DNA of 63,406 bases, the filler included. It is 13 parts of 13 records of this genome, joined end to end, with 100 filler letters (N's around TTAATTAATTAA, not from the genome) between each part and the next. Parts side by side here need not be neighbours in the genome. Positions count along the whole stretch, not along the records: positions 53,340 to 57,723 come from SRR7504441_24207; 12 more parts are not named here. One strand, written 5' to 3'. Shown piece by piece: positions 4,805 to 58,142 of the stretch; the first letter of the stretch is position 1; the number at the start of each line of letters is the position of its first letter. The notes beneath the pieces are model-generated. The model was given only the letters and a program-made list of their open reading frames with translations. It had not been told where the DNA came from and did no database searches. The position numbers were made by a program, and so were the translations under genes.

Positions 4805-4904
4805 NNNNNNNNNNNNNNNNNNNNNNNNNNNNNNNNNNNNNNNNNNNNTTAATTAATTAANNNNNNNNNNNNNNNNNNNNNNNNNNNNNNNNNNNNNNNN
4901 NNNN
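4805..4904. other. Artificial contig-joining spacer (first of 12)
   Basis: 44 N + TTAATTAATTAA (stops in all six frames) + 44 N. Identical spacers at 9181, 16965, 22374, 25968, 30069, 36218, 40004, 43523, 47761, 53240 and 57724. Adjacency across these spacers is not biological. Confidence 0.98.
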
Positions 4905-8841: not shown

Positions 8842-9563
8842 GCTGGCTGCCAACCCGGGTGCTCTCGCCGCTCCCCTGGTCTCCCTGGTGCGCTCTGCCG
8901 CTCTCCAACGGCAGAGCAACGTCAAGTTTGTTTCGCTAGCAGTGCGTCACAGGGTGTGCCTCCTGACCAAGCCGGCACCGCCTCGCGCTGATGTTGGCCA
9001 GCGAGGTCCCAGCCGCGGCCAGCAATCAGCATCCTGATGCTGGGGGGGCAGGACGGGGCTGCGGCAGGGCACGCCGGGCGGCCTTGACTGCGGCTGCCCC
9101 AATGCAAAAACGGTGCAGGCACACGAAATCCGATTACAGTACGTAGAATTTAACACTTGATAACTATATAGATCAGGGCTNNNNNNNNNNNNNNNNNNNN
9201 NNNNNNNNNNNNNNNNNNNNNNNNTTAATTAATTAANNNNNNNNNNNNNNNNNNNNNNNNNNNNNNNNNNNNNNNNNNNNAATGGAATGGGAGGGACAAT
9301 TCTGTTGAATGAATCCTCTATCCCCGAACTCGAAGACACACCCGAGTGTAAGTCGGATGAAGGTCAAGGACACAGCAAGCGATGCGATGCAATCGAATTG
9401 CCGTGTACCTGCTGCAGCAGCACTCCCCAATCATTGCTAGCTCGAGAGAAGTGAGGCACTATTAATTTTGTTGTGGCTTCAGTTCCTTGGAAGTCTCCCA
9501 AGCGAGCACATGTTAACATGCATTGCATCAAATAGCGAGGTCAGCATGGTGGGCGGTTGAGGA

Positions 9564-16964: not shown

Positions 16965-17402
16965 NNNNNNNNNNNNNNNNNNNNNNNNNNNNNNNNNNNN
17001 NNNNNNNNTTAATTAATTAANNNNNNNNNNNNNNNNNNNNNNNNNNNNNNNNNNNNNNNNNNNNGTCGAGAGGAGCACCAGCAATAGTAGACGCCGTGGA
17101 GCCATCGGAATGTTAAGCCACCGCCTCAAAAGGAAAGACCCTTCCAGCTTGTGATTCCAGTCAGTTGTCATCAACTGTCAGCTCAGCTACGCTTGCTACT
17201 AGCTTGATTAATGCATCTAATCTTCTCATATCGAGTTTAAAATTAATGTGTTACAAGTATGAGAAATTTACAAGACTTAGTCCATTGTAAGCCTACTGAA
17301 CTGCATGGAATCCCATGGATGACTAACAACGACATTGGCATCGGTTCTACTCGCCAATTTTGGGGTTCAGTTGCTATTTGATTTTAGCGGACGCAAAGCA
17401 GA

Positions 17403-22296: not shown

Positions 22297-22797
22297 CCTG
22301 GACAGATCGGCAAACCCAGCCCTGGAAGCGCCTCACCCAACAAATAAAATTGTTTTAGCCAGGATGGCTCAAGNNNNNNNNNNNNNNNNNNNNNNNNNNN
22401 NNNNNNNNNNNNNNNNNTTAATTAATTAANNNNNNNNNNNNNNNNNNNNNNNNNNNNNNNNNNNNNNNNNNNNAAGAGTTTGGAGCTTGCCTGAGCGCTG
22501 CGGCGGAGGAGGACACATGAAGGAGGTGTTCATCTCTCGGTATTCTCTCGGCATCCCCGGGCTTGTCTAGCCGGGCTTCTGCCAAAGCGCCTTGTGAGCA
22601 TGTACAGATGTACAATACATCACAACTTCAGCTATAGCCAGCCCCGGTTACTGCTATACAGTCAGCCCTGGTTACAATTCGTACTACAAAACGCTCGTTA
22701 TATATCTGGTTGCGGTTGGCCGGTTGCGTACTGGTATATACTCGTACCAACCCTTCGATGAGTTCGTCTCGAGATACAACGTATTTATTGACTTATG

Positions 22798-23733
22798 CTA
22801 TAGTGCTGTATCAGGCCACAACTCATTGACAGGACGAAAATGTATGACTTGAATCGGGTCGTCCGGCTGAACGCCCGGGTAGAACTCGCCGAGCACTCGC
22901 TGCAATGCAGCTGCATCTGCCATCCCCTCGACCTCCGCCAACGCATCGTCGACCTGGTCAAACCTCCGCCACTCTATCCGCACAACAGACAGCACTTGCA
23001 CCGCCTTGCCCTTGCCCACAACTGCCAGGCACGGCCGGCCCTCCTGCCCGGGCTCAGCCCACAGCACAGCCTCCGCACACACCTGCAGCACATCGAGCTC
23101 GGAGCCGCGGTCGGTATCCCGCTCGCCGCGCACCCTGGTGGTCGCCAGCTTGCTGCCCGACCGAAGGACCTCCACAAACCGCGGCGCAAAGTGCACCCGC
23201 GGCAGCCAGCGCAGAACGCTCCCGTCTACAGGCTCCGGCGGCCCGCCCGCTACTTGGGCCACCGCGGCCGCAAGCTCGGCCTGGCAGCCTTCGAGCTGGC
23301 TGACGAACCCGCTGTTGGGCGCCACCCACGGCCGTGTCTGCTGGATCAGTTCCACCGCCGCTCCGGCCGTCCGGCCCTCCCGGTGGACCAACCAGCCGGC
23401 CAGCACCGCCGCGCTCCGCGACCGGCCGGCCACGCAGTAGACAAACACGGGCCGACCGCGCGCGGCGTGGATGAAGTCGAGCGCCCGGTGCAGGCCCTCC
23501 CGGATCGGCTGGTCCGGCTCGTCCCTCCAATCGAGCTCCAAGCCGACCGGCGGGCCATCCGGCTCCGCGAAGCAGCGCACCGCGTTCTCGATCCCGTGCG
23601 CGGCCAGCTTGTGCGGAGCGGCGGCGTCCACCGGCCCGATGAACAGCCCCGGGGCCACCTGCATCGGCTCGTCGTCCAGGAGCTCCACCACCACCTCCTC
23701 CTCCTCCTCCTCTGACTCGTCGACCTCAATCAT
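22798..23733 (-). CDS. Dual-specificity phosphatase fused to a C-terminal ASCH domain
   Basis: DSP: QVAPGLFIG, VFVYCVAGRSRS, RPWVAPNSGFVSQL. ASCH: VHFAPRFVEVLRSGSKLATTR...FDQVDDALAEVEG...LGEFYP...VIHF. Probable 39-nt in-frame intron within the ASCH domain. Confidence 0.82.
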   Translation of the reverse strand: MIEVDESEEEEEEVVVELLDDEPMQVAPGLFIGPVDAAAPHKLAAHGIENAVRCFAEPDGPPVGLELDWRDEPDQPIREGLHRALDFIHAARGRPVFVYCVAGRSRSAAVLAGWLVHREGRTAGAAVELIQQTRPWVAPNSGFVSQLEGCQAELAAAVAQVAGGPPEPVDGSVLRWLPRVHFAPRFVEVLRSGSKLATTRVRGERDTDRGSELDVLQVCAEAVLWAEPGQEGRPCLAVVGKGKAVQVLSVVRIEWRRFDQVDDALAEVEGMADAAALQRVLGEFYPGVQPDDPIQVIHFRPVNELWPDTAL

Positions 23734-23763
23734 TGCACCGATCAAAGAATCCGTTACTCATCA

Positions 23764-25967: not shown

Positions 25968-26069
25968 NNNNNNNNNNNNNNNNNNNNNNNNNNNNNNNNN
26001 NNNNNNNNNNNTTAATTAATTAANNNNNNNNNNNNNNNNNNNNNNNNNNNNNNNNNNNNNNNNNNNNTG

Positions 26070-29000
26070 GCTGGAGCGTCGGTTCAGCTGCCGTTGGTGT
26101 TTCAATCAGCAGATGGTGGAGAGATGGCCCAGTGGCTGGCTACGCTCTCTCCGTCAGGTAGTATGCGACCTTTTGATGTTGAAGCTGATGGGATGGTACG
26201 TGGTGAAGCCAGTGGCGCCCTTGTGTTGCTTCAGCAACCTGATGACTGCAAGCTGGTGGGCTCAGGGGCCAACTGCAACAATGCCCTCTCTCCGAGCGGG
26301 TTTGTGGACCTAGCCATGATCCAACAGGCGGCAATCGAGGCATTGGGAAATGCAGCAAGTAGGTCGGATCAGGTGGGAACATGTCACCCACATGCAATGG
26401 GCAACCCGGCTTCGGACCTGCCCGAATTGGCTGGGCTGGTCAAGGCATTTGGCGAGGCTGACACACCGAGCTTGGTAGTGTTAGCAGGGCACAAGGCAAA
26501 CTTCGGACACTCGCTGAACGCCGCAGGGCTGATCTCAGTGGTGGTGACTTCATTGGTGTTACAGCATGCCATGGTGCCTGTGCACCTCAAGGTTGCAACT
26601 CCTGTGCCATTTATAGCGCAAACAAAGTCGCTTTTGCTACCAGTCGAAGAGGCTGGAGTGCTGCAGCCCAGTGTCAGTGGAGTACAGCTTGGATCCATCA
26701 GTGGGACATCAGCCTCGGGCGACAATGTACACTTGGTCATGCAGCATGCGGGAGTCGAAGTAGGCAGATGCAGCTGGGCCACGGAATCCCTGAGGCGTGC
26801 ACAGCCAGAACCGGATCAGCAAGCGAGCTGTCCACAGGCACCAGCAAGCTTAGTCCATAACACCGCCAGCATGGATGACACATTAACGCAGAGGAAGACG
26901 ACACTCAGCAGAACCAACTTTGACATGGTGGTTGGTGTTGAAACCGAGGTCGTACAGCAAACCTCTTCTGGATCGGAGACGACGCATCGGGGGGCACTTG
27001 TAGACCAGATTCATAGAATTGTACAAGAGGTTGCATGTCTGTCCAACGATACTGCAGACGACGACAACCTCTTTGAGTTGGGGCTCACAAGTCAGCAGGG
27101 AGCACAGATCTTGAGCTCAATCAAATCCAAGACTGGGGTGGCACTAGAGATGTCTGACCTGTTTGTTGCACGAACAGTGCATGGACTTGTAGATGCAGTT
27201 GGTGACACCATGCACGTTCCAGTGGAGAGAGGGGACGCCAGCAGGGTCAAAGTGGACGTGAGGGACGTGCGTGCAGAAAACAACTGGTCAACCATCAAGC
27301 ACTCTGACGAGACAAATAGCTTCAAAGACTCCAAACTCACAGATGGCTGTGTGGACGTTGTAATCATTGGTGCTGGTGCATGTGGTGTGTTCCTTGCGCG
27401 TGATCTTGCAGAGTGTGGTGTCAACGCGATTATTGTAGAACAAGAGCGGCACATTGGAGGTGTCTGGTATTACAACAATTATTTTGGACTCCGCCTTCAT
27501 CAATTTGGGGCACCCTACCGCTGTGGCTCTGTTGCACCGTCGTGGATGGAATCCGAACACAATTTATTCCGACCGTCAAGAGACATGATTCTGCAATATC
27601 TACAGTCTTGCCTGTTACATCACCGAATTTCTGTACTGACTGGTATCCAGGCACACTCATGGTCATTGGTTGGCAACCTCTGGGCAACAGATTTGTCGGA
27701 TGGAACAAGTTTGGTCAGCAGAGTACTGGTACAAGCAACAGGCCTCGCTTCTGCATTTGGGGGGAAGATGGCGATCCCTCCTGGATGTACGCTCGACGCC
27801 CAAACAATCCACTCTAAGGATGCCACACTGGAAAGATTAGTAGTCAATGATCCTCAGAAGTCACAATTGTGCATCATCGGTGCTGGTAAGACTGCAGTTG
27901 ACCTGCTGAATAGTCTGAACATGTTGGGCTTTACAAGACTCACTTGGATGCATCGTGGTACAATTTACTTCAACAACAGACGCAAACTTCTAAATCCGGG
28001 AAGTTCATTTCAAGCAATTGGTGAGCGTCTGGAACTAGCATTGCGATTAGACAGACACAGTGCCTGGGAGAAGCTGGTAGACGATGGAATTCTGATCCGA
28101 CCTCGGTGTTCAACGATGAGTGACCGACCATTCAGGGGTGGTGTGTGCTCTCCAGAAGAACTGGCTGTGGCCGATCGTGCAACAACGCTTCTGGTGGAAG
28201 AAATACACCAAGTGGAGAGGGGGCAGATAACCTACAGCAAACGAGGTGCTGTTGGAAGGTCGACATTGGCCTTCGATCTTGTAGTACTGTGCACTGGTCA
28301 AAAGCGTCTCAACTTCACAACAGCAAGCCCGCCTCATGATGGACAAGGCAACTTCAAGCTGTATCCGTTTGGCCTTACAACTGTTTCACTTTGCTACATA
28401 CCCTACGTAAGTCGCGTACTTCGCTACCTTCGACACGGAGATAGCGAACCCATTCGCCTGGAAGGCATGGATGAAACACTGCCACCACCGTTTGATATCA
28501 TAAGTGCGATGCAAAACAAACTGGATTGCTTCTGTCTGTCATCAAAGCGGGAACACGACTTCAAGAACGGGGACAACGGTGCGACAGTAGAATATTACCA
28601 CGGATGGTTCAACAAAAAAATACCAGTTGCTGACCTTCTGGGCTGGGATGTGCATTTAATATCACCACCACAGCATGCGCCAACAACAACTGTAGGACCA
28701 GCTGTAGACTGCAGCATGAATGTCAGAATTGCAGGGATAGCATGCGAATTTTCTCCTTCAATCACAAATCAAACATACTTATGGAATCTTCTCATGTCGG
28801 CCGACTGTTGCATAACAGATATGCCCCCCGATAGATTTCGTCAAGCATGCAATCAAGTCGATGCACCCAGGGCAGTGCGCACAGGATCATTTATCACCTT
28901 GAGGGAAACAAATCAACAACTAGACGCTCATCTAATACAGCTTCAAGCTGCAATAGAGAGAGCCATACGTGATGCAAGCCTGCATCTCAAGGACACCAAT

Positions 29001-30068
29001 GCCAGTTCACAATGCGGCTTATTCAGCGGTATAGAGGCCTCTGATTTCATTGTCCCTGCACCATCATTTTTGGTGAGTCGCATTTTGGCATCGGCAGCAG
29101 GTATGACCGGCCCACATCTCAACTTTGCTTCAGGGTGCGCTACAGGTTACCTTGCCATGCACAACGCTGCAGCGCACATGAACAAAGGTCAGATCGACAC
29201 AGCAATTGTGGCATGCTGTGGCCTGCGGCTTAAAGCAGAAGTAGGGCAAGCTAGAATCCTGGTTAGCAGATTAGGAGTGCTGCGTCCATTAGATATGAGT
29301 TCGGATGGGACAATCTTCAGTGAAGGGTGCTGCAGCATGGTCCTGGCAACATCATCGGAGTCGACGCTCTCACGATCGTGTGCGACACTGGTAGGGTCCG
29401 CAGTTGAGTCTGTTGATGTCAAATATCCATTGGGCTTTGCTGATCCTGTAAGCATGAAAGAGGTAGCACTTAGAGCACTGGAGATTTCTCGAGTGCCACT
29501 GGACGCTGTTGGTTTCATTATTTGTCATGCAATGGGGAACCCTAGTTCAGATGCCCCTGAGTGTAAAGCAATGGTAGATGTGTACGACAAGCCGGCTGTG
29601 GGTAACAACAGAACGATGGTGAATTACAAGGCAGCATACGGTCATTGTCCCTCAAACTCTGGGATGGTTTCTGCCCTGTTGACAGGCTTAGTACTTCAGC
29701 ATAGCTGCTCACCTCGAATGCAGAGGGTGATTTCACCACTGAGGGTTTTGAAGCAAGCTCGGGTGCTGGTGCTACCACTAAAATCACCAAAATTGTTTGA
29801 TGTTGCGATCACAGAAAGAGTTGGATGTATAAACGGGACGTCTGCCTCCGGTGAGAACGTGCACTTAGTGCTTCAATGTGATGATAATTCCAGCTTACGG
29901 CCTGAAATCTCATCCTGCTGGCAAGCATCGCTACGAGCCTCTAACAGCCCAGGGTTCCGAGGCCCGCCGCCGTCGCAGGTGTTCCAAACTGCTGCCGCAA
30001 CGGATTTAGCACCCTCCTTGGGGATGGATGAGCTCCATACAGCGCTCTTTGAGCTGCACAGCGAGCTT
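26070..30068 (+). CDS. Modular type I polyketide synthase fragment: KS(partial)-ACP-flavin monooxygenase-KS-(ACP start), no AT domain
   Basis: Open across the whole contig. KS motifs RPFD..ADG.VRGE, HAMGN, KANFGH. ACP LFELGLTS. FMO motifs VVIIGAGACG, GGVWYYN.Y.GL, IHSKD, IIGAGKTAVD and DLVVLCTG. The second KS has SGCATG/HAMGN/KAAYGH. Confidence 0.9.
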
Positions 30069-30403
30069 NNNNNNNNNNNNNNNNNNNNNNNNNNNNNNNN
30101 NNNNNNNNNNNNTTAATTAATTAANNNNNNNNNNNNNNNNNNNNNNNNNNNNNNNNNNNNNNNNNNNNTACCGGCCCGCCGTCCGCAATCCCACGCGCTG
30201 CATCGCCGTGCCGTAGCCTGTTCCGAGCCGGTCTCGAGAGCAAGGCTACGAAACGACGAAACAAGGCTACGAAACAAGGCCATAATTTCTTTTTAATTTC
30301 TCGATGCAGCAGCGGGTCGTCATATTTCCCTCCTTGGAAGGCATTTGTTACTGAGTTGTTACGCGCCACCGGCTTGAGATCATCACATGGCGTCTTGAAA
30401 AGC

Positions 30404-35767: not shown

Positions 35768-36519
35768 CTCGCATAGATACATAGCTCGCACCATTGATGA
35801 TTGATCAGAAGTTTAGAACCTTTTGTGAAGCACTGAAGCTCCCGAGAGAATATCGGACAGGTCGTGTACTCGTACTGATTGTTGAATTTGAGCTATATAA
35901 AATTGAATTGAAATGCGACAAAATTTTATATAAACGACAGCTATACACTTGAGTCATGTGTAGATTATTTTCAGCTGGACGAGTATCGCGATCGATCGAT
36001 CGGTTCATTCGACCACGACTACAGTATACTCCACATGAATTAATAAGCCCAGTCTTTACGCGTAACTAGACACATTCCTGAGTGGACGGGCGCTCGCCGG
36101 CACTCAGCGGACTCAGAGGTCCGGCCGGCCCGGCTCCTGCCCGGTGTCGCGGTATAGCTTGGCCACGGCGCTTTTGACTCGATCGTACCCGCCGCCGTTG
36201 ATCACCGCGCTAAAATTNNNNNNNNNNNNNNNNNNNNNNNNNNNNNNNNNNNNNNNNNNNNTTAATTAATTAANNNNNNNNNNNNNNNNNNNNNNNNNNN
36301 NNNNNNNNNNNNNNNNNCCCCGGCCGATCCATTTTTAACGGACTCTCTCCCCGCTCAGGCGGTGTGCACATCAGTTGCATGTAAGATGCATGCCCTAGTG
36401 GCCTCAAACTACTAAAATAAATACGAGCTCTCTCACACCTCAATTCTTACAACTAGTATTTTATTAAAATTCTATAATTCCACTGAAGTCAAACAAGTAC
36501 TGATTGAACATTTTATACG

Positions 36520-39930: not shown

Positions 39931-40103
39931 GGACGGCGCTTCCTGAGGCCCGGCCCGGCGCTCAACGGACTTGCACGCCACTCAGAGTTTGCTCCAACGG
40001 AAGNNNNNNNNNNNNNNNNNNNNNNNNNNNNNNNNNNNNNNNNNNNNTTAATTAATTAANNNNNNNNNNNNNNNNNNNNNNNNNNNNNNNNNNNNNNNNN
40101 NNN

Positions 40104-43522: not shown

Positions 43523-43939
43523 NNNNNNNNNNNNNNNNNNNNNNNNNNNNNNNNNNNNNNNNNNNNTTAATTAATTAANNNNNNNNNNNNNNNNNNNNNN
43601 NNNNNNNNNNNNNNNNNNNNNNCCTGCGGCAGCTCCCACTTGCCCAGCCACATCAAGCCAGAGCTTGCAGTAGACCCCTGACCCAGAGCTTGCATTTGTT
43701 GAATGAAAATGTCGTTGTGCAACGTCCGCAGTGATGTGGCAGCAGGACTAGAGTCAAGTGCGAGTCGGAGCTCAAGCATGCTTAATTTGTGTACGTTGTG
43801 TGAGCGGTAGCTCAACGTTGGTTAGAAGCTACGTTCTTCCACGCTCGAGCATTTTCCAAATTCCAACGTATATATCCCGCAATTTTATACAGAGAGTGAC
43901 TCATTAACTTAAGTGCGCACAAGAAGCTCTTTTGTTGGC

Positions 43940-47760: not shown

Positions 47761-47860
47761 NNNNNNNNNNNNNNNNNNNNNNNNNNNNNNNNNNNNNNNN
47801 NNNNTTAATTAATTAANNNNNNNNNNNNNNNNNNNNNNNNNNNNNNNNNNNNNNNNNNNN

Positions 47861-53076: not shown

Positions 53077-53339
53077 GTGACTGAATCGTGGGTTTATCGT
53101 CGGGTTTGACCCGTGCGACCGTTGAGTAAATTGATTGTGGTTAACGCGAACAATGCCGGCCAGTTGTGCACAACCGCGTGATCTAACTAAGTCTTTAGAT
53201 GGCACACCGGGTCGTAACCTGCGTCTCTCTGATTGCGTCNNNNNNNNNNNNNNNNNNNNNNNNNNNNNNNNNNNNNNNNNNNNTTAATTAATTAANNNNN
53301 NNNNNNNNNNNNNNNNNNNNNNNNNNNNNNNNNNNNNNN

Positions 53340-54320
53340 GCTGGCGGGGCTGGCGCGTCGGCTGGCTGATGGCGATCCTGTATGGTTTGTGGGCAACGAG
53401 GCGCAGGGCGTGCACTCGGCCCGCGGCTGGCTCGAACAGTTCGCCATGCTCGAGCCGACGCAATACACGGACAAAGGTGCGCCGGCGCTCAGGGGGGGGG
53501 GGTGAGCTCCGGCAGGTGTGACAGTGCTTCAAGGGCGGCTGCGTGTGCAGGGGCCGTCGGTTGGGCTTGATAGCTTTGAGGAGGCCGGATGCCTCGAGCT
53601 ACCGTGCGGCCGGCAGATCGAGCCGTGGTGCACGCTGCCCGGGCTGTTCAACGCAGGTGCGGCGGCTTGTGGCCGGCGCCGGCCAGCCCGGGCAGGCAAG
53701 CTGGACGGAATGAGCGCCATGCTGCTCGGTCAGCTCACAGGGCTGGCGGATCGGGCCCGAGTGCTTGACTTTGCTTGCGGCTCCGGGGCGATCTCGGCCG
53801 GACTGCTGACGGCGCATCCGGGGCTCCAGCTTCACATGCTCGACGCCGGTGCGGATGGTGGCCTGCTGGGTGTGAGGTCGGGTCAGATGCGGCTGCTGTG
53901 CACGTGGCGGCTAGGAACGTGCCCGGGGCAGTGGAGTGCCAGCTGTCCGACTGCTGGGCAAGCCCACCGGACTGCAAGTTTGATCATATTGTTAGCAACC
54001 CGCCGGTGTGCTGCTGGCTGGCCTGCGGGGGTGAGGCGGGGCAGGTGCATTGCGGGACTGCGTCGGACTTGACTGTGCTGAGTAAGCTGGTGCTGGGCGC
54101 CGGGCGGATGCTCGCTGGACGAGGGCAGCTCTGGATTGTGGCCCAAGTGTACGTGCCTGTCGGACTGATGATAGCCAACGCGAGCGATCTGGAGCCAGCT
54201 GAGGCCGTGATCGACGATGGACAGTTCGTGGTGTGGCGGGCTAGTAAGAGAAAGAAGAAGGAGGCCAAGGGGGATAAACGAGCAAAGAAGCAAAGCTCCT
54301 CCAAACGAAAGCGAGAGTAG
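53340..54320 (+). CDS. RsmC-like (MTS family) SAM-dependent methyltransferase, 5'-truncated, with introns
   Basis: WFVGNEAQGVHSA, TLPGLF..GKLDGMSAMLL, RVLDFACGSGAI, FDHIVSNPPVHCG and GQLWIVA, followed by a Lys-rich tail. Confidence 0.78.
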
Positions 54321-54458
54321 CGTAAGAGTAGCGTACATAGCTAGTAAACTAGCTAGTAATGGATAGTACGTACTATTATAGAGACATTACTCTACATTAC
54401 TCGACTGGTAATCGACGTAGAATGTTGATTATTTTCGATTTACAAATGCCACTAGGTG

Positions 54459-57400
54459 CTAGCTACAACTAAACCCTCCGACTTTCGCCTTAAGATTGGA
54501 CGCTAAGAGTGTGGGGTCTATCTCAAACACCAAGTTGTGACCGCCTGCTCCGCACAAAATGTTGCGAGGGCGTTGTTCCGCTCCGCTCGCCCTGAGCAGA
54601 GACTCTTCGATCAGAACAATCGTATCCGACTGGTGCCGCAGCCCAACTGGGCCTAAGGTACCCGGTTCGAAACCAAACATTTCGACGAGACCCCGAGGAG
54701 TTGGCATTGACAAGCAAGACCTTCGCACTCCGATCAGTTGGGCCAGACTGGCCATGTCAAGACGGTCTGAAGCGCCCAAAACACACACCAATAATCTTGC
54801 AGACAGGGCATCGTTGTCCCGCAGCTCTAGCCCTATTGATTTGACAAGGTGGCAGCTCTTGAGATCCGCCTCATGCACCGGAAAAACGGGCACTGATTCC
54901 CCAAAGATCTCGTCCAATGCACTTCGCACATCGTCAGGCAGCAATGTTGGTACCGAAGCGTCGCTCAGATCCTTTTCAAAATGCCTCTTTGAGCAGATCG
55001 GTGCAGCATTTATCGAGTGGCCAAAGTTCAGGTGGCATTCAGCCGCCGGTAACCCCCATTGCGACTGAAGTGCAGACGACAACACATCAAAAATGTAAAG
55101 GAGGACACGTGCATCGAGTGCAGCATAGATCTTCTGGCCCTCAGACAGCGGTCTGGTCTGCCAATCGCTGCATTGGAAGGTCTTGTCCAAGGAGCGCCCC
55201 AGGCAGGTTTGAGCGAGCAACGACAAGCTACCATGAGATTCTGACGGCAAAACTAGATCTGACAGGCTAGCTAAGTCTATGGCGGAATGTGCCAAGTTCT
55301 CTGTGGCTGAGGCTCGCCAGTTCAATGTGTTTGCCAGTCTGCAAAGATCGCCGTCCAGTGCAAACCCAAGACAAATCACCTGTAACGGCGTGCACAGCAG
55401 CAATCGCAACAGAGTCCCTAGCAGCGGGATCGCGTCATCATCCCGTCGAAGGCTCTGGATATCGAGTATGATATTGTACTCCGCGAAAGCAAGCTGGAGC
55501 AGACTCACCGGTGCGTCGGCTACTGCAGGCTGCCATTCGCAGTCAAGCCCGACAGGTGTCGGATTCTGGGATTCTGCTGTCACTGTTTGTAACGTGGATA
55601 ATGCCGATTTCAACATGCTCACTGAGTCTACCAGCACTACATTTGCCTCCAAGGACAGTGAGCACGGCTGAGGGACGATGCGCAAGCTGAGCTCCAAGCG
55701 CTGAACAAGCTTGCGTGCCACTTTGGGCCTGCCCGAGCTGAGGCTGTGCATCACAGCTGACACCTGCCAAGGAAATGCACAGGCAGCTTCGCCCTCAGCC
55801 TCTTGGCTTACTCTGCCCTGCAACACGGCTGATAATCGCTCAACAGCTGAGGTAGACCCATCGTCGAGCAACGTCGCAACAAGTTGTTTGGCCTCGTGGC
55901 CAGTCAGCGTGTGTGCTGGGAATAGCTCCAGCAGCTCGGGAACCACCTCGCTGCATTCGCTCCGCAGCCGCTCGATGTAAGCGCTCAGAGCCGCTGGTGC
56001 GATCGACTGACCAGAGAATCGCAACACCTTTGCTGCCTTAATCAACAGCCTGGGGCACAGCTCGACGTGCCCGTTGATCGCGCAAAGGAAGAACTCGACT
56101 CCAGTGCGAGGGCAGGTCTGCAGGACGGCTCCTTTCGAGTACGCATCCACTATGAGATGGCCGAGCATCTTCTGGTGATGCACAGGCTTTTCTGCGAGCG
56201 TCTGCAGCGCCTCGACGACAAGCTCGGGCGGCACACTCGATTGAAAATAGTGATTCGCCAAGTCTGCGACGGCGTGCTTTCCTGGCTCGGCAGTATTTAA
56301 CCGTATTCTGCACCGGACCTTTCTGCTGGATGGCACTCGCAGAGTGACTCTGATCGCAAACTTTGCCCCAGCCCGGGATTCCGAGTAAACTTCACTGAGC
56401 ATACCAACCAGACCGGCCCCGGTCTGAGGCAGCTCTGAGGGCCACTCACGGTCCGAAACCTGAGCAGCACGCAGGTGCAGGTCTGGTCGGAGCGGCAGCG
56501 GCTGGTCTGTGATGCCAGCCTCGAGGATGGCGCGGCTCAGGAACCTAGAGTCCACGTCAGTGCCAGCCACCGTCTCTGCAGGGTCCCAGTCAGGAGGGAG
56601 CACGAACCCTCTCGAGGCCTCCACCCACGCCTGGCTGTCCGCATCCCAGCACAGCTCGGCCAGCATCACAGCGGAGTCCTGGCTGCTGCGCCGGCCGCAC
56701 TGCTTCCGAGAGCTGTTGTACGTGGCCACTGCTTGGATCATCTCCACCCCAGACAGCACCGGTAACGGCAGGATCTCCAATTCGGGCTGGCCCGGGATGA
56801 CATGCGCGCCCGCCTCGCGCGCCACAGCCCTGTAACGGTGTCCGCCCTCCCCTCCAGTAGCTGGCTCGGCTACCAGAGCCTCAGCCTCGACACTCGAGAC
56901 CGGTGAGAGCCAGAAAAGCTTCGAAAGCAACGCCCACCGCCGCTCGGGCATTGCGGCCAGCTGGCCGGGGTCAGTAGTCCACCAGCCGGCCAGCGCAGTC
57001 GGGCTGACGCCAGGTATGGCAGGTTTGGTCCATCTGCAGCCGTTTTTAGAGGCCTCGAGAGGGTAGCACAGCCGGCCCCGGAAGAGAACCTCAGACTCGA
57101 TCCGGTGCTCGTACCCGAGCTTACGGAGCCAGTCGGCCACCGCCGGCGCCTGGCACAGCCCTAGCTTGCGCCGGGTCTCGGCCACGCGCCATGCGAGGTT
57201 CTCGTGCAGCTGAGGGCCCACTAGCCCAGCCAGGCCGGCCCCAGACGCCTGAGGCCCGGTCCAGCAGAAGTACTTGGCAGAGCACTCCAGGTGCACCGTC
57301 CGCTCCCGGGCCGGGTCGGCGAACACAAACTTGAGCTGGCCAGCCACGTTCCGCTGCTTGTCGCCGGACCGGACTTGCAGCCCGCTCTCCAGCCGCCGGG

Positions 57401-57723
57401 CTGGGCAGCCAGGGAGTCGGCTCAGCCCGAACCCAACCAGGGCCGCGAAGTAGAATCCAAGCATCGGAAGCTTCCGGCTGCCCTTCTGGCCGTTGGCCGC
57501 CAGCCAGTCGAGCAGCTCGGTCGGGTCCTCGTCCAGCGCGGCCAGCCCGGCCGCCGGGATGGCCAGCCAGCCGTCCGGGGTGCACGGGAGAGCAGGCAGG
57601 GCGTCGGGCTGGAGCAGGTGCGGCGCGCCCAGGCACCACTCCAGGTCCCGCACCACCTTGCAGCGCCACCGCATCCGCTACACAGCCCCATCCGCCAGCC
57701 CCAGCAACTGGAGCCCTGGCCGC
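54459..57723 (-). CDS. DUF1853-like + DEDDy 3'-5' exonuclease + YbaK/tRNA-editing domain fusion (5' end incomplete)
   Basis: DUF1853-like: RDLEWCL, LGFYF, HLECSAKYF, GPQLHENL, RGRLCYP, RGFVLPPDW. Exonuclease: VGLDCEW, LLQLA, QCSDWQTRPLS..QKIYAALDA. YbaK: LVKSI, GFEPGTLGPVG, ILCGAG. Confidence 0.82.
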
Positions 57724-58142
57724 NNNNNNNNNNNNNNNNNNNNNNNNNNNNNNNNNNNNNNNNNNNNTTAATTAATTAANNNNNNNNNNNNNNNNNNNNN
57801 NNNNNNNNNNNNNNNNNNNNNNNGAACTTTACGACGAATAAATTTTAATACGAGTATGGCACTACGCTAACTATAATACTTACTATGTTTCGGACTTGCA
57901 TCACCAATCTCTACGAGTTGTGAATGAAGTGATTGGTACGGAACTGAATATAAAACAGTTACATGTAACCGAGAGTGAGATGATTGATGAGATCGTGACG
58001 AGTCAGACTGTCAATGTAGCAAGAGTCAGGAAAGAGCGTCACTCTGCGAAATAAGTTCAGCATCTCTGCAACATTAACAGAGCTTTGGCGATGTCTAGGA
58101 AGAGATCGGTTGTACACTCCAAGTACACTCAAAGATCGGTTG

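Follow-up and report, generated by a model that had tools for sequence, protein, structure and literature searches.

A DUF1853-exonuclease-YbaK fusion protein from a conserved and uncharacterised eukaryotic family with a MUT-7/Nibbler-type exonuclease

Introduction

Several exonucleases related to the one considered here are well characterised: Nibbler and MUT-7 trim small RNAs, WRN and EXD2 act on DNA, neither pair being known for action on tRNA, and RNase D and Rrp6 trim the 3' ends of structured RNA. Within a stretch of DNA of 63,406 nucleotides (the window), the minus-strand gene at 54459..57674 joins such an exonuclease to two further domains, DUF1853 at the N-terminal end and, at the C-terminal end, one resembling the tRNA-editing deacylases YbaK and ProX, in one protein of 1071 amino acids (aa). 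The gene is a member of a conserved, widespread and uncharacterised eukaryotic family with a core made of a MUT-7/Nibbler-type DEDDy exonuclease and a YbaK-type domain. Public protein databases already contain proteins of this architecture under uninformative names, and the gene adds a further member to an existing but undescribed family.

Both of the added domains have bacterial relatives for which something is known of the residues that matter. For the INS superfamily, to which YbaK and ProX belong, a lysine is described as conserved in nearly all members, touching the C75-A76 phosphate and positioning the CCA end of the tRNA (PMC10164551). DUF1853 was assigned to the PD-(D/E)XK superfamily by Laganeckas et al., who describe three motifs; of its eukaryotic members, the passages on DUF1853 in the two PD-(D/E)XK surveys that name it say only that they belong to "significantly longer sequences" (one survey from 2010, PMC3045609). 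In the open-access literature the name occurs in one further paper, on the phylogenomics of Pseudomonadaceae.

The combination appears to have escaped comment. No published description of a DUF1853-exonuclease-YbaK fusion was found in the open-access literature, where the Pfam accessions of tRNA_edit or DUF1853 were also never paired with an exonuclease accession; among the open-access matches listed, YbaK never occurred together with the names MUT-7, Nibbler, EXD3, WRN exonuclease or RNase D. A 2004 paper on segmentally variable genes holds the terms "YbaK" and "exonuclease domain", a match of terms alone. A term search of the 2024 MUT-7 paper (PMC11347159) returned none of YbaK, aminoacyl, DUF1853, algae or protist.

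Three domains in one reading frame

The original prediction, made from the sequence alone, had read a fusion of DUF1853, exonuclease and YbaK domains in a single 1071-aa frame, and Pfam bears this out with three matches above the curated cut-offs: DUF1853 (PF08907) at aa 9-266 (E 5.7e-28, 98.7 bits against a cut-off of 25), DNA_pol_A_exo1 (PF01612) at aa 693-869 (E 1.9e-18, 67.3 bits against 23.6) and tRNA_edit (PF04073) at aa 959-1055 (E 7.9e-9, 36.1 bits against 25.5). These E-values are far beyond chance, and they include the two terminal matches that had been singled out for checking. The domain coordinates proposed earlier agree with the Pfam boundaries; the outer end had been placed at 57723, which is the end of the contig, and the open reading frame (ORF) begins at 57674.

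As read, the ORF (P0001; 1071 aa plus stop) is uninterrupted and intronless. An in-frame TAG stands two codons upstream of the ATG and the N-terminus (MRWRCKVVRDLEW) aligns with those of homologues, so the protein is complete at both ends. The contig that carries it, 53340..57723, is eukaryotic genomic DNA.

All domains are encoded on the minus strand. The DUF1853 domain, here in a degenerate eukaryotic form, runs from aa 9 to about 365 (56580..57650), as delimited by Pfam, alignment with bacterial forms, motif tallies and AlphaFold; it is a conserved C-terminal block in the alignment (EASRGFVLPPDW, at about aa 355) that stretches it to about aa 365. A linker and all-alpha middle region seen in the AlphaFold models (aa 366-692, 55599..56579) leads to the DEDDy 3'-5' exonuclease domain (aa 693-872, 55059..55598), which is defined by Pfam, phmmer against the PDB, Foldseek and residue conservation. 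The YbaK/ProX-like domain (INS superfamily, tRNA_edit; aa 913-1068, 54471..54938) is placed by Pfam, Foldseek and conservation of its lysine.

The full-length AlphaFold model, built from a 63-sequence alignment, has a mean predicted local distance difference test score (pLDDT) of 83.2 and a predicted template-modelling score (pTM) of 0.60. Disorder is predicted at aa 373-410, 445-478 and 879-907, the last being the linker before the YbaK-like domain, and both AlphaFold models give confident helices over about aa 483-659. The middle region had no Pfam match at E<=1 and no usable match in the ESM Atlas, and a fold search with the N-terminal 690 aa against the PDB returned 0 matches at E<=0.001, with weak helical-repeat look-alikes (PUF, TPR and designed repeats). 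As modelled, this region is all-alpha and repeat-like, and nothing more specific. Pfam found neither Mut7-C (PF01927, at E<=1) nor an HRDC domain in the protein.

Matches to NCBIfam equivalog models fall well below threshold, both for RNase D (29.6 against 298.95 bits) and for YbaK (TIGR00011, 18.4 against 153.25 bits), which places the domains in their superfamilies without making them orthologues of the bacterial enzymes. On these scores the protein is not a YbaK orthologue.

The exonuclease and YbaK-like domains

The exonuclease was predicted to be of the MUT-7/EXD type, with its acidic residues and tyrosine in place, and the closer look agrees. The catalytic residues are Asp711 and Glu713 (DCEW, 711-714), Asp776 (GDL, 775-777), and Tyr850 and Asp854 (YAALDA, 850-855), which we take to be the Exo I DxE, Exo II D and Exo III Yx3D of the DEDDy scheme. 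Equivalents of Asp711, Glu713 and Asp776 are present in 48/48 DUF1853-type relatives, and those of Tyr850 and Asp854 in 46/48, the other two being gaps.

In sequence and in fold the domain is closest to Nibbler/MUT-7. With phmmer against the PDB, the best match is the Nibbler EXO domain 7jw6 (E 2.6e-10), deposited, like the second Nibbler EXO structure 7jw2, as "Exonuclease mut-7 homolog"; the WRN exonuclease and EXD2 come next. Foldseek with the exonuclease model ranks 7jw2 best (E 3.9e-10, template-modelling score normalised to the target, TM(target), 0.76), followed by the WRN exonuclease, Rrp6, EXD2 and RNase D; TM(target) lies at 0.72-0.79 for 7jw2, 7jw6, 2e6l and 2fbv.

In the YbaK-like domain the expected lysine is Lys945, in LVKSIG (943-948), and a substrate loop, GFEPGTLGPVG, occupies aa 1001-1011. 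Among DUF1853-type relatives the lysine is found in 35/36, with one gap, and the glycine-rich loop is conserved as well, as would be hoped from the earlier reading of a YbaK/ProX-like domain with a conserved lysine. Of the Mut7-C-type relatives, 13 keep the lysine, 3 have Asn in its place and 6 show a gap. The fold is recovered by Foldseek, which places the model on Haemophilus influenzae YbaK (1dbx, E 1.6e-7, TM(target) 0.74) and on the ProX structures 2cx5, 2z0k, 2dxa and 1wdv (TM(target) 0.75-0.78). Relatives score up to 82.6 bits with tRNA_edit and 35-53 bits with the YbaK equivalog. Matches to papillomavirus E1, obtained when the domain alone was searched against PDB sequences, were at chance level (E 0.24-0.33) and were rejected as noise.

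A widespread family with recurring exonuclease-YbaK linkage

Word-indexed homologue searches yielded only 2 and 3 relatives, and an exhaustive phmmer search was needed to recover the family; over 1.84 billion representatives it gave 2204 matches at E<=1e-3 and 20 at E<=1e-30. There is no close relative of the protein in the collections searched, and its identity to the relatives is about 20-42%. For the best 49 matches, Pfam assigns all three domains to 22, DUF1853 and exonuclease to 15, exonuclease and tRNA_edit to 4, DUF1853 alone to 7 and no Pfam family to 1.

A set of 154 proteins (the query, 151 others among the matches listed, and 2 more) was then scanned with family-specific hidden Markov models. 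The architecture search that the prediction had proposed thus has an answer: DUF1853-exonuclease-YbaK occurs, collinear, in 36/154 (the query and 35 others) and is not a one-off. A further 12/154 are DUF1853-exonuclease proteins, 22/154 are exonuclease-YbaK-Mut7-C, 18/154 exonuclease-YbaK, 11/154 YbaK-exonuclease and 4/154 exonuclease-Mut7-C, with 19/154 carrying the exonuclease only and 32/154 DUF1853 only. Pfam on a further 69 matches confirms both the Mut7-C forms and those with an N-terminal YbaK domain. It also finds dsrm in two relatives, one of them with tRNA_edit besides; R3H occurs in a relative among the best 49. Relatives from transcript assemblies, such as P0020 (a TRINITY transcript), hold all three domains in one ORF.

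The DUF1853 form is spread over oomycetes (Aphanomyces, Lagenidium, Pythium, Phytophthora and Plasmopara), chromerids (Chromera and Vitrella) and dinoflagellates (Alexandrium, Polarella, Breviolum and Effrenium), with further members in the pelagophyte Chrysophaeum and the diplonemid Namystynia. Exonuclease-YbaK-Mut7-C proteins are found in Cymbomonas, Chlorokybus, the choanoflagellates Monosiga and Salpingoeca, and again in oomycetes, so that both forms are present in the last group. A quick tree of 113 exonuclease domains left 50 of its 109 inner branches unsupported, with the DUF1853-bearing rows not in one clade and nothing deep resolved; it tells nothing reliable on one versus several origins.

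The exonuclease and the YbaK domain come together in at least four architectures, with either one standing first and with a third domain that varies. Such repeated pairing argues for functional coupling rather than accident.

A DUF1853 domain remodelled at its catalytic centre

Bacterial stand-alone DUF1853 proteins (289-353 aa) carry a Glu in the first helix (LGxYFExL), an Asp in GELDF and an ExxxK motif. In the query, the corresponding positions are Ala77 (motif I), Lys115 in GQLKF at aa 112-116 (motif II), and Glu130 and Lys134 in ECSAK at aa 130-134 (motif III); the substitution of GQLKF for GELDF and the retention of ExxxK had both been read correctly. The query thus reaches the Pfam score and keeps ExxxK, and it lacks the motif-I acidic residue or Gln and the motif-II Asp, so that two of the three canonical acidic residues are lost.

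This pattern belongs to the fused forms as a class. Motifs were tallied over 78 DUF1853-bearing proteins, including 54 long (fused) forms, 14 of bacterial type and 9 short ones with Lys, the last looking like fragments of the eukaryotic type to judge from their motifs. At motif II the long forms have Lys in 44, Arg in 1, Gly in 1 and a gap in 8, with Asp in 0; motif I is occupied by Ala (26), Ser (9), Gly (8), Thr (3) or Gln (1), with 7 gaps. All 14 of the bacterial-type proteins retain the motif-I Glu and the motif-II Asp. The motif-III Glu is kept wherever it is aligned (49 long and 23 short forms), and its Lys in 43 of the fused forms.

In PD-(D/E)XK enzymes the Asp lost here from motif II is a metal ligand; it is most likely, then, that the fused DUF1853 domain does not act as a Mg-dependent nuclease, and on its motifs it is probably not a metal-dependent nuclease. 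The constancy of the replacing lysine implies that the site is still under selection. Around the motifs, AlphaFold gives a helix at aa 72-86, strands at 93-103, 109-120 and 125-138, a helix at 160-173 and a strand at 192-205. This order, found in both AlphaFold models, fits an alpha-beta-beta-beta-alpha-beta core; the domain had no fold match in the PDB, and a profile of the 14 bacterial proteins found no match among PDB sequences at E<=10.

Some relatives elaborate this part of the protein. Ankyrin repeats lie inside the DUF1853 domain in P0022 and P0040, an extra WW domain occurs in P0031, and PG_binding_1 in P0049 and P0092. Such inserted and added domains suggest that the N-terminal part may be a platform for protein or ligand contacts.

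It had been hoped that the fusion would offer a functional clue for DUF1853 at large, and here the prediction fares poorly. The motif-II Asp is replaced in 46/46 aligned fused forms and kept in 14/14 bacterial-type proteins, and the losses at motifs I and II mean that the fused domain is probably not doing what bacterial DUF1853 does. Bacterial neighbourhoods lend no support either: across 119 flanking ORFs (30 of 80 loci kept, 598 confirmed) they were heterogeneous, with no conserved tRNA or RNA partner, and a NAD kinase, a MOFRL-type kinase, a phosphomethylpyrimidine kinase and a rhomboid protein each appeared at 2 of the 30 loci. At one locus of the 30, in a Chromatiaceae metagenome-assembled genome (L027, 2043-7713), the genes beside DUF1853 code for an archease, the RNA ligase RtcB and an exonuclease I-like protein, a single case that is not conserved at the others. 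With the eukaryotic domain remodelled at its catalytic centre, its context is best not carried over to the bacterial family, and the result stands as a caution.

Proposed mechanism and its rivals

The exonuclease and the YbaK-like domain, both with intact catalytic motifs, have known relatives that work on RNA 3' ends. To our knowledge, charged tRNA, with its aminoacyl bond, offers the only well-known natural ester at an RNA 3' end, and an RNA that ends in this way is trimmed poorly. The mechanism that we favour, and would place just short of an even chance, is deacylation of an aminoacylated RNA 3' end, most plausibly that of tRNA, followed by trimming, with the helical and DUF1853 parts binding the substrate. 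The C-terminal YbaK-like domain would bind a 3'-terminal adenosine bearing an esterified amino acid and hydrolyse the ester, the most plausible substrate being aminoacyl-tRNA or a tRNA-derived or tRNA-like CCA end. The freed 3'-OH end would then cross the flexible linker to the exonuclease and be trimmed in the 3' to 5' direction; in the case of tRNA, this would remove the CCA and so inactivate or degrade the molecule. The all-alpha middle and the N-terminal DUF1853 domain would serve as substrate-binding or recruiting modules that hold the RNA or a partner, and not as a second nuclease.

A precedent for the logic comes from Trypanosoma brucei, in which LCCR4 is described as shortening tRNA CCA tails, with deacylated tRNA the better substrate (PMC7897491); given this preference, a built-in deacylase would make sense. 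RNA as the substrate is also favoured by the sister architectures, which carry the RNA-binding domains Mut7-C, dsrm and R3H, the first of them described as binding RNA in the MUT-7 work (PMC11347159).

Several points weigh against coupled deacylation and trimming. The substrate, the order of the reactions, the non-catalytic role of DUF1853 and the sharing of one substrate by the exonuclease and YbaK domains are all matters that we infer. The original prediction of a tRNA quality-control machine that deacylates and then trims thus keeps a reasonable core in the coupling, argued from at least four architectures and both domain orders; its tRNA part is less secure, as the characterised homologues of the exonuclease act, so far as we know, on small RNAs or DNA and not on tRNA. 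The YbaK domain of the query scores modestly, both with Pfam and with the equivalog, and its single-sequence PDB search gave chance-level matches only. The Asn in place of the lysine in 3/16 aligned Mut7-C-type relatives hints that some members of the wider family may lack deacylase activity. For the selected Lys115 of DUF1853, a binding role or non-canonical chemistry is possible to judge from its conservation, and the orientation of the domains and the confidence between them are judged from the pTM of the full-length model only.

The most serious rival, which we consider unlikely though well worth entertaining, takes the protein for a MUT-7/Nibbler-like 3' trimmer of small RNAs in RNA silencing, in which the YbaK domain would hold the 3' nucleotide or sense its chemistry while DUF1853 and the helices recruit it to partners. 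It draws on the rank of the Nibbler EXO domains as best matches in sequence and fold, on the 22/154 proteins with Mut7-C (one Phytophthora member being named "Exonuclease mut-7" by its source) and on those same Mut7-C-type relatives that have lost the lysine. Yet the DUF1853-type clade keeps lysine and glycine loop as an active hydrolase would, and we know of no ester, aminoacyl or other, that small RNAs naturally bear at their 3' ends and that would need a YbaK domain. A looser arrangement, with the YbaK domain as an ordinary trans-editing factor for mischarged tRNA and the exonuclease at work on unrelated RNA with no hand-over between them, would suit the conserved lysine, the fold shared with free-standing editing factors and the predicted disordered linker at aa 879-907; we hold it to be rather improbable, since a linkage that recurs in both orders, with three different extra domains and in distant eukaryotes, would be difficult to account for if the two domains did not share a substrate.

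Less probable again is a nuclease of DNA processing or repair, combining a WRN- or EXD2-like exonuclease with a PD-(D/E)XK endonuclease. WRN exonuclease and EXD2 are significant matches in sequence and fold, and the superfamily assignment of DUF1853 (PMC3045609) would supply the second activity, but Nibbler outscores both, motifs I and II of the query are without their Glu and Asp, and Mut7-C, dsrm and R3H in sister architectures point to RNA. We also know of no role of a YbaK domain on DNA. An assembly artefact, either a chimeric contig or read-through of separate genes, might be feared in a window that is a patchwork of short contigs; it is very improbable, as the ORF lies entirely inside one contig without a single N, the full-length model is confident, and 35 further proteins, drawn from several lineages and in part from transcript assemblies, carry the domains in the same collinear order.

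A bolder version of coupled deacylation and trimming can also be envisioned, although we rate it as a long shot. The exonuclease-YbaK pair may be an ancestral module of the MUT-7 family, lost in animals, that first served to attack charged tRNA 3' ends, with DUF1853 an inactivated bacterial nuclease recruited for targeting; its basis is the occurrence of the pair in choanoflagellates, green algae, oomycetes, alveolates and a diplonemid. Such a module could strip and trim the CCA ends of tRNAs that serve as primers for reverse transcription of retroelements, or it could make or clear 3' tRNA fragments. Either option, if true, would make a direct link between tRNA and the "mutator" control of transposons.

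Two new points stand out as the most useful: the breadth of exonuclease-YbaK coupling in eukaryotic MUT-7-type proteins and the catalytic remodelling of the fused DUF1853 domain. Should the coupling prove real, it would define the first enzyme class to strip a charged RNA end of its amino acid so that the end can be degraded, and it would give many protists and algae a means of inactivating charged tRNA under regulation or of keeping it under surveillance. It would also change the view of the MUT-7/Nibbler family, many of whose non-animal members carry a deacylase domain that goes unmentioned in the literature searched.

The contig and the rest of the window

The window is made of 13 contigs (3.4-7.7 kb) with N44-TTAATTAATTAA-N44 spacers between them, and features on different contigs are not genomic neighbours. 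From the window sequence, the spacers lie at 4805-4904, 9181-9280, 16965-17064, 22374-22473, 25968-26067, 30069-30168, 36218-36317, 40004-40103, 43523-43622, 47761-47860, 53240-53339 and 57724-57823.

On the contig of the fusion gene, a convergent neighbour on the plus strand (53506-54320) has its stop about 140 nt from that of the 1071-aa ORF. It encodes a small-domain, MTS-type S-adenosylmethionine-dependent methyltransferase, for which the Pfam match is split across two frames. Removal of a candidate GT..AG intron of 38 nt (53849-53886) restores the frame, and removal of a second of 39 nt (54006-54044) yields an NPP-VHCG motif. Two candidate introns this short suggest a genome with tiny introns.

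Other contigs code for calpain, RabGAP-TBC, F-box/SPRY, GH38 mannosidase and ankyrin proteins and for a polyketide synthase fragment. The last fills 26068-30068 (plus strand), a contig with a G+C fraction of 0.51 against about 0.6 elsewhere, as a single open frame that runs off both contig ends; it is multi-modular, with ketoacyl synthase, PP-binding and flavin oxidoreductase-like segments. An ORF at 22798-23745 (minus strand) pairs a dual-specificity phosphatase domain with an ASCH domain, an unusual combination.

Comparison with known systems

Of the described systems, MUT-7/Nibbler/EXD3 offers the closest exonuclease, and the signature QCSDW...RPL...YAALDA is common to both. An all-alpha region precedes the exonuclease of the query, and paralogous relatives of the query carry Mut7-C; the query itself has no Mut7-C, and so is not MUT-7 proper, and bears instead DUF1853 at its N-terminus and a YbaK-like domain at its C-terminus. 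RNase D and Rrp6 belong to the same DEDDy superfamily and give weak NCBIfam and fold matches, but the query falls far below the RNase D equivalog cut-off and Pfam finds no HRDC in it.

With the trans-editing deacylases YbaK, ProX and ProXp the query shares the tRNA_edit match, the fold, the conserved lysine and the glycine-rich loop. Those proteins are free-standing or reside within prolyl-tRNA synthetase (ProRS), whereas the query domain is fused to an exonuclease, and it lies, as do its relatives, far below the YbaK equivalog cut-off. Homology to bacterial DUF1853 (PF08907, COG3782) extends over the whole domain, with ExxxK and the C-terminal SRGF block kept; unlike the stand-alone bacterial proteins with their GELDF, the fused eukaryotic forms have Ala, Ser or Gly at motif I and Lys (GQLKF) at motif II.

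The likeness to LCCR4 of T. brucei is drawn as a functional analogy only: both would concern regulated 3' trimming, described there for bulk tRNA in a protist (PMC7897491), but LCCR4 is a different enzyme and has no deacylase domain. Taken over these comparisons of sequence, the protein would appear to work most like a MUT-7/Nibbler exonuclease to which an editing-type deacylase has been added.

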